Origin: a bacterium
GTDB taxonomy: Bacteria; Patescibacteriota; Minisyncoccia; Phycocordibacterales; UBA2100
Assembly: GCA_030648265.1 (NCBI GenBank)
Contig: JAUSHX010000028.1
Span: forward strand, 249-64,248
Length of the DNA stretch: 64,000 nt
Direction of reading: 5' to 3'
The notes under the pieces: model-generated
The model's database searches: none
Told to the model about the DNA's origin: nothing
The model's input: the letters and a program-made list of their open reading frames with translations, nothing else
Shown here: positions 2,760 to 63,613 of the stretch, piece after piece
Numbering within the stretch: the first letter of the stretch is position 1
How the letters are laid out: each line of letters begins with the position of its first letter
Made by a program: the position numbers and the translations under genes

Positions 2760-3911
2760 ATGTCTTTCTCCCTCGGCGGTATTTCAAAATTCTTCAAGTC
2801 CTCATTCGGAGGAAGTTCCGAGGGGAGCATTATCGGCATTGACATCGGTGCGTCGTCCGCGAAAATTGTCCAGTTGCGCGCGTCCCGCGGGACGGCGATT
2901 CTTGAAACGTACGGAGAAATCGCTCTCGGGCCCTACGGAGGCCAGGCAATCGGCAAAGCGGTGAAACTGACTCCGGAAAAAATTGCCGAGGCGCTCAGCG
3001 ATCTCATGCGCGAGGCAAATGTGACCGCCCGTACTGGCGGGCTCTCCATACCCTTTTCTGCGAGTCTCGTGTCGGTGCTTGAAATGCCGAAAGTGGACAA
3101 AGATTCTCTAAAGAGAATGGTTCCGATAGAGGCGCGCAAATATATTCCGCTTCCCGTATCGGAAGTCACTCTTGATTGGTTCGTCATACCGCATGAGGAG
3201 CAGGGGGAGAGCGCGTTTGACCAGGTGGAGGCGCCCAAACCCGTTCACGCGAGAATGCAGGAAATCCTCCTCGTCGCCATACATAATGAAATCCTCCGGG
3301 ACTATCAGAAGATATCAGAGGCAACCGGGCTCAACGTGAGTTTCTACGAGATTGAGATTTTCAGCGCGACTCGTTCCTCAATGGGGCATGGCGCGGCGCC
3401 TGTCTTGGTTGTTGATTTGGGCGCGGCGACGACGAAGATGTATATTGTGGAGCGCGGGATTGTGCGCCTTACCCACCTGCTCACATCCGGCGGACAAAAC
3501 ATGACGGATACGCTGGCGCGCTCGCTCTCATGGGAATTTGAAAAAGCGGAGCGCGTGAAGAGGGAAATCGGACTTGTCAGTTCAACCGCGTACAGCACGG
3601 ATGAGAACGACCGGATAAAGACGGCATTGTTATCAACACTCTCCCGTGTGTTTTCTGAGATAGACCGAGTATTATTAAGCTACGGGCAGCGATATAACAA
3701 AAACGTGTCGAATGTCCTCTTGACTGGAGGAGGGGCATCGCTACCCGGCCTTGCGGAACATGCCAAGGGGTCGTTGCACGCGGAAGTTCTGATTGCGGAT
3801 CCTTTTTCGCGCTCGGAGGCGCCCGCATTTCTCCGAGATGTTCTGCGGCAGATTGGTCCGGGGTTTTCCGTTGCGGTGGGTCTTGCGTTGCGGAATTTGA
3901 AGCAAGGATAA
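2760..3911 (+). CDS. pilM: type IV pilus assembly protein PilM (actin-like ATPase fold)
   Basis: IGIDIGASSAKIVQL N-terminus, 383 aa, first gene of the pilus operon. Confidence 0.8.
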   Translation: MSFSLGGISKFFKSSFGGSSEGSIIGIDIGASSAKIVQLRASRGTAILETYGEIALGPYGGQAIGKAVKLTPEKIAEALSDLMREANVTARTGGLSIPFSASLVSVLEMPKVDKDSLKRMVPIEARKYIPLPVSEVTLDWFVIPHEEQGESAFDQVEAPKPVHARMQEILLVAIHNEILRDYQKISEATGLNVSFYEIEIFSATRSSMGHGAAPVLVVDLGAATTKMYIVERGIVRLTHLLTSGGQNMTDTLARSLSWEFEKAERVKREIGLVSSTAYSTDENDRIKTALLSTLSRVFSEIDRVLLSYGQRYNKNVSNVLLTGGGASLPGLAEHAKGSLHAEVLIADPFSRSEAPAFLRDVLRQIGPGFSVAVGLALRNLKQG

Positions 3912-4022: not shown

Positions 4023-4733
4023 ATGGAAACGGGAATACAAAATACTTTTATACCGCACGATGTCTCGCAACCTGCGCAACGAGAGCGCGCGCGGGAGGGC
4101 GGTATCATGGATCTCGTGATGCTCGTGTCTATTGTTCTCCTGGTTGCGTCTTTGGCTCTTGCGGCAGGGGTTTTTCTGTACCAGCAATATCTGGATACGA
4201 GCAGTAAAAGCAAAATTAATCAACTCAATATTGCCAAGGCGCAGTTTGACCCGGTGCTCATTCAGGAATTTTCACGCTTAGATGACAGGATGCGGGACGC
4301 GGATTTGATTTTGGGCAACCACATCGCCCCGTCCGTATTCTTCCATATGCTGGAGGCAAATACCCTGACCACGGTATCATTTCGTTCCCTTGATTTTCAG
4401 GCGGGAAGCGATGAGGGTATGTCTATAAAAATGGGAGGAATCGCTAAGAGCGTGAATTCCATAGCGCTGCAGGCCGACTTTTTCAGCAAAGTAGGCATTA
4501 TAACGAGCCCGATTTTTTCCAACATTGACCGTCAACTGGACGGGGTGCATTTCAGTTTTTCTGCGCTCGTAAATCCATCCGCAATACGCTACGCGCAATT
4601 GGCGGCAGCGGGAAATGGAGGAAATGCCGTGCCAACGCTTTCTGTGCCCACAGCGCCTTCGGCGGCCCCAACCCCAACCCCGGCTCCCGAATCAGGATTA
4701 TTTCCTTCGCAGCCGGCGAACCAGCAACAATAA
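4023..4733 (+). CDS. PilN-like bitopic membrane protein with Pro/Ala/Thr-rich C-terminus
   Basis: Single N-terminal TM segment (LVMLVSIVLLVASLALAAGVFLY) and position between pilM and pilO. Alternative start at 4107. Confidence 0.45.
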   Translation: METGIQNTFIPHDVSQPAQRERAREGGIMDLVMLVSIVLLVASLALAAGVFLYQQYLDTSSKSKINQLNIAKAQFDPVLIQEFSRLDDRMRDADLILGNHIAPSVFFHMLEANTLTTVSFRSLDFQAGSDEGMSIKMGGIAKSVNSIALQADFFSKVGIITSPIFSNIDRQLDGVHFSFSALVNPSAIRYAQLAAAGNGGNAVPTLSVPTAPSAAPTPTPAPESGLFPSQPANQQQ

Positions 4734-4753
4734 TAAATGAATAGTACAATCCA

Positions 4754-4949
4754 TCCCAGCCCCACTTTTGCAAAACACATTTAGAAAATTATGACAAAAT
4801 TACGCAAGCAGGCATATATATCGGCAACGCGCTCCGCCCAGCAAGGGGAGTCCTATTCGGACACGCACGTTGCATGTAACGTATCGGCAAAAGTGGAGTG
4901 GGACGTAAGAGTTTCTAAGCTCGCTTCGCTCACTAACAAACTCTAACGT
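4754..4949 (+). repeat. hairpin element copy A (central IR plus right-arm hairpin abutting the pilO ATG)
   Basis: IR TCCCAGCCCCACTTTTGC (4754-4771) pairs with GCAAAAGTGGAGTGGGA (4887-4903). Right arm: CGTAAGAGTTTCTAAGCTCGCTTCGCTCACTAACAAACTCTAACGT-ATG. Confidence 0.8.
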
Positions 4950-9627: not shown

Positions 9628-10839
9628 ATGTCCGTCTTCACCTACACAGCAATGGATGCCGAGGGAAACGAAAGAGCCGGCACCATTGATGCGGTAAACC
9701 TGGATCTTGCCATTATTGCGATACAGCGGCGCGGGCTCGTCATATCCAACATTGAAAGCGCCGATAAACCAGCGTCTAAATTCGGGGGGCGCATTGCATT
9801 TTTTGACCGCGTAAAGAACAGCGATATTGTTATTCTTTCCCGCCAGATTACGACTCTTTTTGAAGCGCAAGTTTCAGCGCTCCGCGCTTTTCAGCTTTTG
9901 GCGTCTGAAGCGCGCACGCCAAAGCTTGCGGAGAAATTAAGCGCTATCGCAAGCGACATACAGAGCGGCAGTACGATATCCACCGCGCTCTCGCATCACC
10001 CGGATGTGTTCACGCCGTTTTACGTGAACATGGTGCGGGCGGGCGAAGAATCGGGGAAACTGGATGAGACGTTTTCCTTTCTTGCCGATTACATGGACAG
10101 AAATTATGAAATCACCCAAAAGGCGAAGAACGCGCTTATCTATCCGGCGTTCGTAATGTCCACATTTATTATCGTGATGATGCTCATGATGACTCTCGTA
10201 GTCCCGAACTTGGCAAGCATGCTTGCCGATGTCGGGCAGAGCGTCCCGATCTACACCAAGGTTGTCATCGCCATGAGTTCATTTGTGTCCAGATACATCC
10301 TGCTTATCATTATTTTGCTCGTTTTTCTGGTTGTATTTTTGGTGCGTTACTCGCAGACCGAGGCCGGGGAGAGGGCGTTATCAAAAGCGCGGATGCAGAT
10401 TCCCTACATCGGGTCCGTGTATCAGAAACTTTTTCTTTCGCGCCTTGCCGACAACCTCTCCACGATGCTCCGTAGCGGTATCCAGATTTTGCGCGGCATT
10501 GAAATAACCGGAACGGTGGTGGGCGACCACGTCTATGAAGATATTCTCAAAGCAGTTTCGTCCGATGTGAAAGGCGGCATGCCGGTTTCGGAAGCATTCA
10601 GGCGGCATCCGGAAATTCCGGGAATCGTCGTCGCAATGATAAAAATCGGCGAGGAGACGGGAAACATGGGAAGCATTCTTGATACAATGGCGAAGTTTTA
10701 CAGACGGGAGGTGAACAGCTCAATTGATACACTCGTCAGTTTGATAGAGCCGTTTATGATAGTCATGCTTGCGGTCGGCGTTGGCGTGCTCCTGTCCGCG
10801 GTTCTTATTCCTATATACAATATAGCTTCTAGCTTCTAA
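9628..10839 (+). CDS. pilC: type IV pilus platform protein PilC (GspF family)
   Basis: 403 aa with two T2SSF repeats and three TM regions. Confidence 0.9.
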   Translation: MSVFTYTAMDAEGNERAGTIDAVNLDLAIIAIQRRGLVISNIESADKPASKFGGRIAFFDRVKNSDIVILSRQITTLFEAQVSALRAFQLLASEARTPKLAEKLSAIASDIQSGSTISTALSHHPDVFTPFYVNMVRAGEESGKLDETFSFLADYMDRNYEITQKAKNALIYPAFVMSTFIIVMMLMMTLVVPNLASMLADVGQSVPIYTKVVIAMSSFVSRYILLIIILLVFLVVFLVRYSQTEAGERALSKARMQIPYIGSVYQKLFLSRLADNLSTMLRSGIQILRGIEITGTVVGDHVYEDILKAVSSDVKGGMPVSEAFRRHPEIPGIVVAMIKIGEETGNMGSILDTMAKFYRREVNSSIDTLVSLIEPFMIVMLAVGVGVLLSAVLIPIYNIASSF

Positions 10840-23880: not shown

Positions 23881-24501
23881 ATGAAAAGCGCTAAGAATCT
23901 ACTCGAGCAGCTCAAATCCTTGCCTTATTTCACCAAGGAGTCTGTTTTGCAGCTTAGCAGACCGTACGGCCTTGCAAAAACAACGGTTGACACATACATC
24001 AGCCGCTCCATGAAGCGCAAAGACATCCTTTCGCTAAGGAGGGGGCTATATGTATCTGCCGACTTTTACAACAAGAACAAGAGTGACACCTCGTATCTTT
24101 TCTTCCTTGCAAATGTTATCCGCAAGCCTTCCTATGTAAGTTCGTGGGCGGCGTTGCAGTACTATGGTCTTGCGACGGAAGCAATCCACACCATTACGTC
24201 CGTTACTTCCAAGGTGACGCGTACATACGTTACAAAGGCAGGCAACTTTGTCTACTCGTCGATAAAGGACGAACTATTTTCTGATTCAGTCTTGATAAAA
24301 GGAAAGTTCGACTTCTTTATCGCCACTCCGGCAAAGGCTTTGTTTGACCTGTTGTATGCTAAGACTCGTCAGTTTCAGGGAGTTGCGTTCGAGCATATTC
24401 CAAGACTCGTCGAAGAGCTACGCATCGATATTGATGAAATGGACAAATCAGAAAGAGAGAAATTTTATATGATGGTAAAGAAATATACGCACCATGGATA
24501 A
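23881..24501 (+). CDS. AbiEi-like antitoxin / transcriptional regulator
   Basis: wHTH-type N-terminus, SYVSSWAALQYYGL motif, 8-nt overlap with the downstream NTase gene. Confidence 0.5.
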   Translation: MKSAKNLLEQLKSLPYFTKESVLQLSRPYGLAKTTVDTYISRSMKRKDILSLRRGLYVSADFYNKNKSDTSYLFFLANVIRKPSYVSSWAALQYYGLATEAIHTITSVTSKVTRTYVTKAGNFVYSSIKDELFSDSVLIKGKFDFFIATPAKALFDLLYAKTRQFQGVAFEHIPRLVEELRIDIDEMDKSEREKFYMMVKKYTHHG

Positions 24502-25780
24502 TCAGATTCTCAGCGTGCTTAAGCAGAGACTCCAGGAAGTTGTCGCGTTGGGCGTTGCCGATGCCGAAACACAGCGCAATGCACTGAAAGAGGAGCTTCA
24601 GTACTATGTACTCGATTTTATCTATCACCACCAGGAATACAAAAGATGGGTGATGTACGGCGGTTCCGCGTTGCGTATTTGTCACGGCTTGGACCGAATG
24701 TCTGTCGACCTTGACTTCGAGGTTGAACATCCCATTACTGATGCATTTCTCACAGACCTACAGAATGAAATCGGAGAGCATTTTTCAAGCGCTTACAATG
24801 TTGGTTCGGAATCGTTGACGGTAAAAACCAATCATGGCCGTGGACTAACGCTCCGCTTTATCATCGGCGACGAACTGGGGTTTGGCCACACATCCAATCA
24901 GGTACATGTGAAGATAGACCTCAATAATTTCATGGCCCCCAAGACGGTTATCGAGCGCCGGCCAATCAACCACAACCAGCTTTCATTCGTTATCGTGACC
25001 TACAATATGTCAGCGCTCATGGCGAGCAAGATTGCCGCCATATTCTTGTGCGGTCGGCGGGGTATCGGAGAAGCGGTGTATGAAGAGAAAGGCAGAGACA
25101 TCTACGATTTACTCTGGTACATGGGCAAGAAGACTGTGCCTGACCTTGATTATCTGAACGCAAAGAAAGTTGAAGAAGCTAAAGACATCCGCACGCTTTT
25201 CACTAAGCTCACGATACAGATGAACAAAGTGAACAATGAAAATCTGAAGCAGGATCTCACGCCGCTTTTCACCAACCAGGGATTCATCACTCACTGGCTT
25301 GAAAACTGGCGCGAGAGTTTTTTCCACTTCATGGATGCTTATAAGATTCGTACCGTAACAAAGCTTGAAGGTGTGCGGGTGTTTGAGGATTTCAACTCCG
25401 ACGTATTTTCATTTGTGTACGCATACTCCACGGCAGAGGGAGATTCGGTGCGGGTTGCGTACCTCATCAGTGACTACTGGATGGACTTCAAGGACGGCGA
25501 TATCCCGACGGTCATAGATAACTTTGTAGACGAGCATATCGAATTTGCCGCAAATGGCGTATCAAGTCGACCCGCATCACAGAAAAAGCTCAAACAGTAC
25601 GCAACTATGTTTTATGCTAAAACCGAAGCGTATTTCAAAAAGACCGGACGCATCATGATAGGCGATACTATCGCGACAAAGCTCATCCGCATGACTGCCG
25701 ATAAACTGAACCAGAAAGAGCAGATTGTGCTCAACAAATCCGCCTTGTTGTCATGCGAGCTTGACGACCTGCTAAGATAG
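24494..25780 (+). CDS. AbiEii/AbiGii-family nucleotidyltransferase toxin with long C-terminal extension
   Basis: GGSALRICHGLDRMSVDLDFEV NTase motif. At 428 aa it is longer than the size I recall as typical for this family. Confidence 0.6.
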   Translation: MDNQILSVLKQRLQEVVALGVADAETQRNALKEELQYYVLDFIYHHQEYKRWVMYGGSALRICHGLDRMSVDLDFEVEHPITDAFLTDLQNEIGEHFSSAYNVGSESLTVKTNHGRGLTLRFIIGDELGFGHTSNQVHVKIDLNNFMAPKTVIERRPINHNQLSFVIVTYNMSALMASKIAAIFLCGRRGIGEAVYEEKGRDIYDLLWYMGKKTVPDLDYLNAKKVEEAKDIRTLFTKLTIQMNKVNNENLKQDLTPLFTNQGFITHWLENWRESFFHFMDAYKIRTVTKLEGVRVFEDFNSDVFSFVYAYSTAEGDSVRVAYLISDYWMDFKDGDIPTVIDNFVDEHIEFAANGVSSRPASQKKLKQYATMFYAKTEAYFKKTGRIMIGDTIATKLIRMTADKLNQKEQIVLNKSALLSCELDDLLR

Positions 25781-25785
25781 AAGGT

Positions 25786-25887
25786 ATGCGCTACACACTT
25801 TTTGAACAACTGAAGAAGGTCTTGGAAAAGGACGAGCGATTGGTGGCCGAGGGGGAATTAAATCGAGCGACATTCTCACATTCTTGA
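25786..25887 (+). pseudogene. 33-codon ORF stub truncated by the first palindrome
   Basis: MRYTLFEQLKKVLEKDERLVAEGELNR.. then a stop inside hairpin 1. The resemblance to N-termini of some RM-type proteins comes from memory only. Confidence 0.25.
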
Positions 25888-26006
25888 GAATGTGAGAATG
25901 TCGTGGGAGGGGGAGAATCTATTCTAGTATTTTGCAAAATACTAGAATAGATTGGGAAGGGCGACGGGGCGGGTCATTTCAATGTTTTGCAAAACATTAG
26001 AATGAC
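25869..26006. repeat. array of three AT-rich palindromes separated by G-tracts
   Basis: Hairpin 1 at 25869-25902 (15-bp stem), hairpin 2 at 25916-25953 (perfect 38-nt palindrome), hairpin 3 at 25973-26006 (2 mismatches). The linkers include GGGAAGGGCGACGGGGCGGG. Confidence 0.85.
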
Positions 26007-26057
26007 GGGGGATAGAAAATAACGGGGGGGAGGGATAGGGAAAAAGGAACATTATTA

Positions 26058-26421
26058 CGCTTAATAATCGTTTGACACCTGTTTCTGTGCCTGTTGCCCG
26101 ACTACGCTGGAGCTCCGCTGGACCGTCTACAGGTGCCTATCATGACCGATAGGCCTGCGATTTGTATCCACGCTACGCGCGGACAAATCGGGAGCCTGAC
26201 ACCTGGTGTTTGTTTACGTCGAAACGGTACCGTCTACAGGCGAATTAACAAATTCGTGGCTCGGCCATAAACTTTGCTGACCGATAGACTCCATTTCGAC
26301 GCGATCTTTACTGGCGACGTAGAGCGAGTGTGATGCGGAAGCGCAGCTTCCGCATCACCGAGCCGAGGAGTCAGAAACCGTCAGCCGGTTTTCGCTTAAT
26401 AATCGCCTACCACCTGCTTCT
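26058..26421 (+). repeat. non-coding segment bounded by 29-nt imperfect direct repeats with internal repeated boxes
   Basis: CGCTTAATAATCG..ACCTG.TTCT occurs at 26058-26086 and 26393-26421. Inside, TGACACCTG, CCGTCTACAGG and TGACCGATAG each occur twice. Confidence 0.6.
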
Positions 26422-26478
26422 TTTGAGGAGTACAATGAGCCCTAACGTTTTTGAGTACTGAATTTATAAACGCAGAAT

Positions 26479-27072
26479 ATGAATCAAATTGTCTACATCT
26501 TAATAAATGAGTCTATGCCTGAATTTGTGAAGATAGGCTTTACTCATGGTGATGTAAACGAAAGAATCAGGCAGTTAGATCGGACAGGCGTACCTCTTCC
26601 GTTTGAAGTTTACTACGCTGCAACAGTGGAAGACGCAGAAAAAGAAGAAAAATGGTTGCATTCTATTTTTGCTGATCGTCGGGCACGGGATAGCCGAGAA
26701 TTTTTCAAGATGAATCCTGAATATGCGGCGCTTGCATTAAAACGAGTAGAAATTAGAGAAACTAAGATTTATAGCGTACTGACCCCAGAACAGGAAAAGG
26801 AAGTCGATCAAGTAAAAGAAAGACGCTCAAGATTTCATTTCGCACAGTACGGAATTCCAGTCGGATCTAAACTTACTTTTACGAGAGATTCGGATATTGT
26901 TGCCGAAGTAGTAGAAAACGACAAAATAAAGATTGGAGACAAGGTTGATTTTCTATCAAATGTGGCCCGTGATTTATTGGGATACAGGCGAAGACCTCAA
27001 GGCACTTTGTATTTTGAATTTGAGGGCGAGATCTTAGATGATAGACGCAGAAGAATGGAGGAAGAAGATTAG
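26479..27072 (+). CDS. T5orf172 / GIY-YIG-like domain protein
   Basis: VYILINESMPEFVKIGFT...ERIRQL...PLPFEVYY...EKWLHSIF...REFF pattern. Confidence 0.65.
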   Translation: MNQIVYILINESMPEFVKIGFTHGDVNERIRQLDRTGVPLPFEVYYAATVEDAEKEEKWLHSIFADRRARDSREFFKMNPEYAALALKRVEIRETKIYSVLTPEQEKEVDQVKERRSRFHFAQYGIPVGSKLTFTRDSDIVAEVVENDKIKIGDKVDFLSNVARDLLGYRRRPQGTLYFEFEGEILDDRRRRMEEED

Positions 27073-47567: not shown

Positions 47568-47573
47568 ACATAC

Positions 47574-47928
47574 CTGCGTTAGGCAGTCGCTGGTCCGCAA
47601 GGGCTAGAGGAAAGTCCGGACACGCCCACGTTTCGTAAGATATGTGGAGCACGGTAGCGGGTAACGCCCGCCGGGGTAATCCTAGGGATGCGAACAGAGA
47701 CGGTTTTTTGCGAGAGCAAAAAACCGCCCCGTGAAATCGCGAAAGCATATTTCACTGGGGCGAGATTGAGCAGTTAAAGGCTCAAGGTGCAACGGCAAAA
47801 ATCCTACCTGCGTGCAAGGTCGTATCAAATCGTGCCATCGGTACGGTTAGAAGAACCGCTTGAGGTGATTGGCAACAATCATCCCAGATAAATGACTGTC
47901 CTCGACAGAATCCGGCTTACAAATGCAG
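47574..47928 (+). ncRNA. rnpB: RNase P RNA (bacterial type A)
   Basis: GAGGAAAGTCCGGAC (P4 5' strand), GGTAACGCC, ACAGAATCCGGCTTA (P4 3' strand), P2 GGCAGTC/GACTGTC, P1 CTGCGTT/AAATGCAG. Ends accurate to within about 5 nt. Confidence 0.85.
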
Positions 47929-48035
47929 CGAAATGAGCGGAGCGAAAAAGCTTCGCTTTTTCGTTTCCGAATGAGAAAATTTGCACGAAGTTGGGCGCAG
48001 TGCAGCCGAGCGCAGCGAGTACTGCACAGAACATG

Positions 48036-55286: not shown

Positions 55287-55410
55287 TCACTACTGATGTA
55301 TTCAAGATGGCCCGAGTCAAGGAGCTCCTAGCGTTTCCTTATAGGCTAATTCGCACGAATTGGCCTATAAGGATTTGTTGAGATAGTGAAATAATTACAA
55401 AACCTTTGTT

Positions 55411-56843: not shown

Positions 56844-56955
56844 GTACCGGCGTTTTTTCCGCCAAGGGGCGCATATGCTAAAGTGCATATGCGCCCCCGT
56901 AGTTTCCTCCCAAGGAGGATCCGCCTTGGGCGGACAATGGGCACTGTACTTTTAA

Positions 56956-57027
56956 GCTCTCGTAGTTCAACGGATAGAACTTCGCACTCCTAACGCGAGA
57001 ATCCAAGTCCGACTCTTGGCGAGGGCA
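56956..57027 (+). tRNA. tRNA-Arg (CCT), no encoded CCA, atypical T-loop
   Basis: GCTCTCG-TA-GTTC..GAAC-T-TCGCA-CTCCTAA-CGCGA..CCAAG-TCCGACT-CTTGG-CGAGGGC-A. There is one A-C mismatch closing the anticodon stem and C at T-loop position 55. Confidence 0.55.
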
Positions 57028-57180
57028 CATAGTGAATGCAATGAACGGCGTGCCCTCGCCAGGGGAAGGGGCCGGGAAACGGGAGTTTCCCGCGGAGGAA
57101 GGAATGGGAAAACCGTGGGTTTCCCAGGCGGCGAAGGGCACAGATGGTATAATGCGTTTGTGATAGAAGCAGACCGCCAA

Positions 57181-61832: not shown

Positions 61833-61866
61833 ATATCTGCAGCCTTAAACCTACCGAAAACATTCT

Positions 61867-61904
61867 CATATTCTTAAGAATATGAGAATGTTTTTAGACC
61901 AAAT
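61867..61904. repeat. perfect 38-nt palindrome related to hairpin 1 of the 25.9-kb array
   Basis: AAAACATTCTCATATTCTT/AAGAATATGAGAATGTTTT compared with GACATTCTCACATTC..GAATGTGAGAATGTC. Confidence 0.85.
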
Positions 61905-62653: not shown

Positions 62654-62670
62654 ACGTTCTCCCAATTTCT

Positions 62671-62712
62671 AATATTCCATATCCTACGCCATGGCGTAGG
62701 ATATGGAATATT
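62671..62712. terminator. 42-nt perfect palindrome, bidirectional terminator between convergent genes
   Basis: AATATTCCATATCCTACGCCA/TGGCGTAGGATATGGAATATT. Confidence 0.7.
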
Positions 62713-63613
62713 ATTTTTGTAGCCAATTGATTACTCGGCCAGAAATTCTATTCGTTTCCTTCGGATTTAACCATTTAATTGCTTTATTACGTCGCCAGTA
62801 AGTAATTTGCCTCTTTGCATAACGCATGCTCTCGCGCACCAACATTTCGTCAAATTCTTTGCGCGAGATTTTCTTCTGCAAAAGGAGGGCTAGAAATTTG
62901 TAATCAAGACCTAGAGATTCCATTTTTTTGTACGACAGACCTTTTTTGTGCAGAGACCTTGCCTCCGCTATCATACCTAGTCTAATTCGCGCGAATAAGC
63001 GAATAGTGATTCTCTCTTCCAATTTTTTCATAGGTAGCGCGATACCTATCCACAGCACATCATACCAAGGACCGTCCTTGGTATTGGATACATGGATATA
63101 GCCCAAAGCGGAGGCAATTTCAAGAGCACGGACAAGACGCCGTTTGTTGTGCCTGTCTATTTCTTTGGCTCGCCGGGGGTCGCGTTTTTTCAGGAGCGCG
63201 AATAATTTCTCCGCAGTCATTTTCTCAAGCTGTTCCCGAAGCTTGATGTTCATGGGTACATTTGGCAGAGCAATCCGGCCAAGCAAGGCGTCAATATAGA
63301 ATCCCGTGCCTCCGGCAACTATGGGTAATTTACCCCTACACGCAACTCGGACGGCCGTCCGAGTTGCGTGTGTTACGAAATCATGAGCAGTGAATATCCG
63401 TTTTGGAGAGACAACATCTAACAAGTGATGAGGGACGCCCCTCATTTCTTGTTTTGTTATTTTTCCCGTTCCTAAGTCCAGTCCTTTGTATACTTGCCGC
63501 GAATCTGCGGAAATGATTTCGCCCCCGAATTTGCGAGCGAGCTCAACAGCCAAGGCGCTTTTGCCGGATGCCGTAGGGCCGACAATAACAAGCACCTTTT
63601 GCCTCTTTTGCAT
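62711..63613 (-). CDS. miaA: tRNA dimethylallyltransferase
   Basis: VIVGPTASGKSALAVELA P-loop, 300 aa. Confidence 0.9.
   Translation of the reverse strand: MQKRQKVLVIVGPTASGKSALAVELARKFGGEIISADSRQVYKGLDLGTGKITKQEMRGVPHHLLDVVSPKRIFTAHDFVTHATRTAVRVACRGKLPIVAGGTGFYIDALLGRIALPNVPMNIKLREQLEKMTAEKLFALLKKRDPRRAKEIDRHNKRRLVRALEIASALGYIHVSNTKDGPWYDVLWIGIALPMKKLEERITIRLFARIRLGMIAEARSLHKKGLSYKKMESLGLDYKFLALLLQKKISRKEFDEMLVRESMRYAKRQITYWRRNKAIKWLNPKETNRISGRVINWLQK

Follow-up and report, generated by a model that had tools for sequence, protein, structure and literature searches.

The window, by which we mean the whole 64,000-nt stretch of DNA that was analysed, contains a defence island extending from a tRNA-Met gene (21105) to ilvD (35773), with genes for Fic, RadC, the AbiE pair, a T5orf172 protein, an HNH protein, a fused N4/N6 + C5 methyltransferase, a type IIG-like enzyme, and SocA/Panacea. 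In the intergenic DNA downstream of abiEii, three palindromes are stacked with G-rich purine linkers between them, and the stack heads a noncoding leader of ~600 nt that is closed, just 5′ of the T5orf172 nuclease-like gene, by the conserved sequence AGGAGTACAATG (Table 1). The original prediction had described three consecutive palindromes at this site, and our measurements confirmed them, hairpin 2 exactly as the perfect 38-mer that had been claimed. Hairpin 1 is likewise a palindrome, but its extent differs from the predicted 25869-25902, and a relative of it, predicted at 61867-61904, does exist, although at the coordinates given in the table.

Table 1. Features of the palindrome stack and its surroundings, and the solo type-A palindrome, in window coordinates
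Feature	Position	Strand	Description
AbiEii gene	24494-25780		Upstream of the array; Pfam E = 1e-20
ORF stub, 33 codons	25786-25887	+	5′ remnant of a DNA methyltransferase-like gene
Hairpin 1	25868-25903	.	Perfect 17+2+17 palindrome; type A; putative wHTH-A operator
G-rich linker 1	25904-25915	+	TGGGAGGGGGAG, 12 nt
Hairpin 2	25916-25953	.	Perfect 38-mer; type B; putative wHTH-B operator
G-rich linker 2	25954-25972	+	GGGAAGGGCGACGGGGCGG, 19 nt; carries the four-tract G4 motif 25954-25973
Hairpin 3	25973-26006	.	Degenerate type B; 17-nt arms with two mismatches, 88% complementary
Purine-rich linker 3	26007-26046	+	40 nt, G or A at 36 of 40 positions; G4 motif 26024-26040
Unit 1, CCGTCTACAGG + hairpin	26122-26155	+	Relatives in L244, L210, and L010
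Unit 2, CCGTCTACAGG + CGAAT...TCGTGGCTnGGCC	26229-26266	+	Relatives in L159 (two copies) and L219
Leader end AGGAGTACAATG	26426-26437	+	Reads as Shine-Dalgarno + ATG
8-codon ORF	26435-26461	+	Follows the leader end AGGAGTACAATG
T5orf172/MUG113 (GIY-YIG-like) domain gene	26479-27072	+	Downstream of the leader
Solo type-A palindrome	61857-61894	.	Perfect 38-mer with AAAA...TTTT flanks; relative of hairpin 1

Within hairpin 1 (palindrome TTCTCAnATTCTnnAGAATnTGAGAA) lies a 12-2-12 core, TTCTCACATTCTTGAGAATGTGAGAA, with the architecture TTCTCACATTCT-TG-AGAATGTGAGAA and the type-A centre ATTCT-nn-AGAAT. Hairpins 2 and 3 keep this register and have GC at the centre; hairpin 2, whose core is ATTCTAGTATTTTGCAAAATACTAGAAT, has the consensus type-B centre RTTTT-GC-AAAAY, and the left arm of hairpin 3 reads ATTTC where ATTCT is expected. 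As had been claimed, the centre TTTTGCAAAA is present in both, and the irregular arm of hairpin 3, TCATTTCAAC, is also found in the related locus L181 (loci in other contigs are numbered with L). The window holds nine stems of at least 14 bp compared to none in 40 first-order Markov simulations of it, which excludes a chance origin of the hairpins. When folded as single-stranded DNA, the stretch 25860-26050 is predicted to reach -39.3 kcal/mol (z = -12.6). Rfam gave no relevant match, either at gathering thresholds in the window and six related loci or at E ≤ 5 in 25700-26550.

The G-runs lie on the same strand and read as originally written. A search for the four-tract quadruplex pattern (tracts of at least three G, loops of 1-7 nt) matched GGGAAGGGCGACGGGGCGGG, which begins in linker 2 and confirms the second of the claimed G-runs as such a motif, and GGGGGGGAGGGATAGGG in linker 3; of the three four-tract motifs that the + strand of the window contains, two lie in the array. 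The intergenic stretch 25781-26093 has 11 runs of at least three G and no such run of C. No part of the window is denser in G-runs, and the count here is the highest among its intergenic stretches, over which G-runs and C-runs of this kind each average ~10 per kb. A second G-run-rich stretch (56866-57137) surrounds the tRNA-Arg gene and includes a G4 motif (57062-57083) and two hairpins.

Further along the leader, 33 nt of unit 1 (26123-26155) are identical to L164 from position 3019. The combination of CCGTCTACAGG with a variable hairpin is a dispersed element, seen in the window, L159, L164, L210, L219, and L244, with no Rfam match; in L219 it lies directly against the start of a gene on the opposite strand. 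The closing sequence AGGAGTACAATG is invariant in the window, L159, L181, L210, and L253.

Palindrome families and their winged-helix partners

The type-A palindrome was found at at least 120 loci in a search of one genome per species (GTDB), nearly all of them in Patescibacteria, and the exceptions among the matches listed are a few Planctomycetota, Verrucomicrobiota, and Gammaproteobacteria MAGs. Type A occurs in L037, L038, and L060 (Planctomycetota contig JBGLNR010000001.1) and in L025 (Gammaproteobacteria MAG), in the last of these together with a winged-helix (wHTH) gene; its presence under labels other than Patescibacteria may be due to contamination during binning, to transfer, or to a distribution that extends beyond this group. 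Across the family the pentamers ATTCT and AGAAT are fixed, while the free positions and outer stems vary yet stay complementary, and the wider form is ATTCY-N3-RTTCT-N2-AGAAY-N3-RGAAT. Type B, ATTCTnnnRTTTTGCAAAAYnnnAGAAT, was found in at least 120 metagenome contigs, and the most frequent type-B core is that of hairpin 2 (48 of 127 among the matches listed). Elsewhere the palindromes are mostly single and not arrayed, and contigs of 200-900 kb each gave one to a few loci among the matches listed. Neither pattern had a match in 2.9 million viral contigs, and a phage reading was rejected. The solo palindrome of the window is flanked on one side by the stop codon of a small membrane ORF and on the other by the gene for NAD(P)HX dehydratase.

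Palindromes of either family lie on both sides of genes for a winged-helix protein of 88-91 aa with the ArsR/SmtB fold, and each family is paired with a protein subfamily of its own. When loci were chosen by palindrome only, ~20 of the 121 type-A loci carried the gene of an 88-aa wHTH with a family palindrome on each side, and 27 of the 120 type-B loci carried a palindrome-flanked wHTH-B gene, the product of which is 33-43% identical to wHTH-A. When loci were chosen by protein (L123, L124, L127, L129, and L132), all five had family palindromes on both sides of the wHTH gene, and no other family palindrome was found in L123 (8.4 kb), L124, or L127 (20 kb each), which were scanned in full. The upstream palindrome lies 8-52 nt 5′ of the wHTH start codon (51 genes tabulated) and the second copy at or over the stop codon; a site before the gene's own start and a second one at its stop are the signature of an autoregulated repressor. 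The type-B downstream palindrome overlaps the last ~11 codons of the wHTH-B gene. In L174, L189, L200, L209, L235, and others, the wHTH-B tail ILVFCKTLE-stop is encoded by the palindrome ATTCTAGTGTTTTGCAAAACACTAGAATAG, putative operator DNA being at the same time coding DNA.

The wHTH family comprises more than 200 clusters at 90% identity, none of which is characterised, and the organism names given for these clusters are Patescibacteria wherever a lineage is specified, with a few saying only 'bacterium'. Using Foldseek with an AF2 model (pLDDT 91), we found CadC, HlyU, CzrA, ArsR, and SmtB as the top matches (TM 0.83-0.89), and no catalytic domain was found in the 88-aa protein. The curated cut-offs are missed, with a Pfam HTH_5 score of 21 bits compared to 22, for one protein only, and NCBIfam HTH_metalloreg scores of 34-39 bits compared to 55. 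Across 51 loci, wHTH subfamily and palindrome type change together, and the types A, B, and GTTCT segregate with the protein. Proteins with 53% identity or more to the type-A query are paired exclusively with ATTCTnnAGAAT centres, and for proteins 33-43% identical to it all detected flanking palindromes but one (L248) have the RTTTTGCAAAAY centre; L248 (43%) and L077 (48%) pair with GTTCTnnAGAAC. The recognition helices differ as well, NfKTiSeHT in wHTH-A compared to GYeNASDH in wHTH-B. This co-variation of subfamily and type, to which no locus with a detected flanking palindrome runs counter, is the strongest argument for the palindromes as cognate binding sites.

The upstream palindromes often lie directly ahead of a -10 box (tgtgTATAAT in L127, TATAAT in L086, TATACT and TATAAT in L129). 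A -10 box after the palindrome was rejected as a discriminating sign, being ~2-fold over background whatever the gene orientation. Among 94 genes with 5′ ends facing a palindrome no family occurred more than four times, and no coherent regulon emerged from them, which counts against the operator reading discussed below. A tblastn search of the 64-kb window with both wHTH queries (E ≤ 1e-3) found no homologue, a further point against it, so the presence of the factor in the source genome is assumed. Literature searches on the palindrome sequences and on operators or terminators of Patescibacteria found no description of this palindrome/wHTH system.

The truncated gene and homologous arrays

A 33-codon ORF had been noticed directly after abiEii and was said to end in the first palindrome, and its stop codon indeed falls in the loop of hairpin 1. 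A phmmer search of 1.84 billion representatives with this stub gave three matches, all N-terminal (P0121, E = 1e-7). The suggestion that the stub is the N-terminus of a longer protein was borne out in L135/L136, where a longer version sits after a Fic gene and its sequence runs on, past a stop, into a further region that we take to be typical of type III Mod-like methyltransferases. The homology covers the first ~25-27 codons and ends at ~25860-25866, the left edge of hairpin 1. In L137 the stub (10001-10114) is cut after the same codon as in the window (25786-25860), at ..AEGEL, with unrelated genes behind; this shared cut in otherwise unrelated DNA may mark a hot spot of recombination or go back to an old truncation common to both. 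An element terminus or a recombination or replication site had been proposed here. The end of homology at hairpin 1 and the cut in L137 partly uphold a rearrangement, and nothing supports a replication site. L001 (Logan SRR13727527), the only public contig with an identical AbiEii gene, ends inside hairpin 1 (window position 25896), probably as a short-read assembly break at the palindrome.

Arrays of palindromes and purine linkers homologous to that of the window were found in four other contigs, L181, L159, L210, and L253, which also have the downstream leader in common. The 38-mer of hairpin 2 is present in identical form in L181, L210, and L253. In L181, a type-A palindrome is followed by a G-rich linker, a type-B palindrome with the TCATTTCAAC arm and a 60-nt insert inside, the linker TCGTGGGATGGGGGGAAGGGATGG (the counterpart of linker 1), directly 5′ of the identical 38-mer, and a purine-rich tract. 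L159, L210 (4433 onward), and L253 have type-B palindromes and then homologous GGGGGA(A)TAAAGA... linkers. The predicted alternation of hairpins and G-tracts therefore recurs in this handful of composite arrays but is not a general property of the palindromes: across 236 sites the association with G-runs, in outward and one-strand counts, is weak and not significant, and at least four G-runs on one strand occur at 6-11% of sites compared to 6% of background. Inserts of 20-60 nt were seen exactly at the type-B GC centre in L181 (reverse complement 4440-4790), L210 (6290-6340), and L159 (2570-2620), and one recurrent insert in type-B centres is CCCTCCAGAGGCGGGC.

Weighing the operator reading

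We consider, with moderate confidence, that the three palindromes are a stack of cognate putative repressor operators at a broken gene in the defence island. This reading is favoured because each palindrome family flanks its own ArsR-fold wHTH gene and both change together. A protein-binding array had been one of the options in the original prediction, and it is the one that the comparative evidence, with type-specific wHTH genes beside putative sites in dozens of other genomes, favours. ArsR/SmtB repressors classically bind 12-2-12 inverted repeats. Two subfamilies of a Patescibacteria-specific, 88-91 aa repressor with the ArsR/SmtB fold would bind the palindromes, hairpin 1 being a type-A site, hairpin 2 a consensus type-B site, and hairpin 3 a decayed type-B site. 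We infer that repressor dimers encoded elsewhere in the genome would occupy the stack, and that they would repress or insulate transcription passing from the abiE operon to the next defence module, or transcription starting at the stack itself. The stack was probably brought to this place when a rearrangement deleted the methyltransferase-like gene except for its first ~25 codons, and the G-tracts are a conserved part of the composite module.

Some of the data do not sit easily with operators. The palindromes show near-perfect covariation at their free positions and in their outer flanks, which is unexpected for independent operator half-sites and points to a hairpin or cruciform constraint or to template-switch homogenisation. 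A central insert, as in L181 and L210, would break a dimer site but not the base of a hairpin and also counts against operators; where type-B copies have them, such inserts speak for a hairpin base or for decay. In family A, T is enriched at +3 to +8 of the outward flanks, which gives the appearance of a hairpin between an A-tract and a T-tract, and convergent contexts outnumber divergent ones (21 compared to 9), with the stop codon a median of 40 nt away, both of which are terminator-like; the solo copy, with its AAAA...TTTT flanks, sits after a stop codon. Together with the perfection of the palindromes, the compensatory changes at free positions, the variable but complementary outer stems, and the very stable predicted fold, these features speak for nucleic-acid hairpins acting as bidirectional terminators or as RNA-processing or stability elements, here as three successive stops shielding the abiE toxin operon from the next module. 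We regard this as possible though unlikely, as G-tracts and not T-tracts follow all three array hairpins, a consensus terminator scan gave no match at the array, and separate, canonical GC-rich terminator hairpins often lie just upstream of the palindrome at other loci. Such hairpins would also leave unexplained both the tracking of palindrome type with the adjacent wHTH subfamily and the invariance of ATTCT/AGAAT across phylum-level lineages. A terminator or hairpin role may nevertheless exist alongside the operator role. An intrinsic terminator in the sense of a G+C-rich stem with a T-run was rejected for the array, the stems of which have 21-42% G+C and are followed by G-runs; the flanks of other family-A copies are T-rich.

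The exact start of the array at the end of the truncated gene's homology, with the same codon cut and different DNA behind it in L137, would also suit selfish or recombinogenic elements, either REP/BIME-like or hot spots, with the array marking the end of an element or a breakpoint and not a site of regulation. Several kinds of dispersed short element make up the leader as a mosaic (palindromes of types A and B, CCGTCTACAGG units, and AGGAGTACAATG), other contigs have insertions at type-B centres, and the palindrome-gene-palindrome layout resembles REP-RAYT-REP. We hold this to be improbable, however, because copy number looks low among the matches listed, the flanked gene encodes an 88-aa DNA binder (by its predicted fold) without a catalytic domain, the defence island of the window has no integrase or transposase, and the viral contigs were without a match. 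It is very unlikely that the G-tracts are the functional part, with G-quadruplex- or triplex-prone purine tracts, spaced by cruciform-prone palindromes, blocking replication or transcription. The two canonical four-tract motifs, the one-strand G-runs without C-runs, and the purine-rich linkers kept beside the same palindromes in L181, L159, L210, and L253 would agree with such a barrier, but G-run enrichment is only weak across the 236 palindrome sites, the G-tract pattern of the linkers differs between homologous arrays, and the quadruplexes are sequence predictions. To a guide-RNA array, CRISPR-like or of the TIGR stem-loop kind, we give almost no credence. TIGR stem-loop arrays with variable palindromes do occur in Patescibacteria (PMC12045711), but the 12 and 19-20 nt between the palindromes are too short for two 8-12-nt spacers plus box C/D motifs, the vicinity encodes neither a Nop/Tas nor a Cas protein (the neighbours being AbiEii, T5orf172, the HNH gene, and the methyltransferase), the palindromes are mostly single elsewhere, and Rfam gave no match. 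Both TIGR and CRISPR were rejected on the linkers, which are G-rich and 12, 19, and 40 nt long compared to spacers of 8-12 nt (TIGR) or ~30 nt (CRISPR); irregular G-rich linkers and the absence of a nearby Cas gene agree with the original statement that the arrangement is not CRISPR-like.

As putative operators, the palindromes are closest in kind to those of the ArsR/SmtB autorepressors (SmtB, CzrA, CadC, HlyU, and NolR), with which the system shares the fold, the 12-2-12 layout, a site covering the regulator's own promoter, and the co-variation of site and protein. It differs from them in the minimal size of a wHTH that scores below the Pfam and NCBIfam cut-offs, in sites on both sides of the gene, the second of which encodes the protein's C-terminus in subfamily B, and in perfect palindromes of up to 44 nt; the window, in addition, stacks three sites of two specificities, with the gene not in the window. 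REP/BIME elements of enterobacteria and their RAYT genes likewise combine intergenic palindromes, which in some cases form clusters together with conserved linker motifs, and a palindrome-flanked gene, but they number hundreds per genome whereas copy number here is apparently low among the matches listed, RAYT is a Y1 transposase whereas the gene flanked here encodes a predicted DNA binder, and the pentamers here are conserved across a superphylum. The inverted DUS pairs in Neisseria terminators also place a short conserved sequence in gene-end hairpins, in a lineage for which reliance on DNA uptake is assumed; in contrast, the density here is orders of magnitude lower than that of DUS/USS, which have no counterpart of the cognate wHTH link. 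The defence-island regulators BrxR/CapW share a conserved wHTH and palindrome module ahead of variable cargo, but the protein family here is distinct and without a WYL sensor domain, and in the window the regulator gene is not adjacent.

A larger scheme, which we consider quite doubtful, is that the palindromes, purine linkers, CCGTCTACAGG units, and AGGAGTACAATG start form a portable operator-leader cassette of ~600 nt that Patescibacteria would reuse with changing cargo genes, in which the conserved ends and retained 5′ stubs, that of the methyltransferase-like gene among them, would serve as recombination anchors for the swapping of defence genes, and two mini-repressors, one with its C-terminus encoded by its own operator, would be in control. 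To our knowledge, Patescibacteria have very few recognisable regulators and their transcription control is almost unknown. If the operator reading is true, it would mean a repressor-operator pair conserved across the superphylum, with at least two matched specificities, and regulated sites would become predictable in thousands of uncultured genomes. For the window, it suggests that expression is regulated or insulated at a junction within the defence island.

Two further palindromes and an RNA gene were observed in the window. The NAD(P)HX dehydratase and miaA genes converge on a perfect 44-nt palindrome, TAATATTCCATATCCTACGCCATGGCGTAGGATATGGAATATTA (62670-62713), which falls exactly between them and fits neither of the two types. 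Beside a tRNA-Gly gene is another palindrome (55336-55373), nearly perfect and centred on ATTCG-nn-CGAAT, and relatives that share this centre in L032, L107, L116, and L137 suggest a further subfamily. The RNase P RNA (47571-47935) scores 113.6 bits compared to a gathering score of 100, a low value that fits a divergent lineage such as Patescibacteria.
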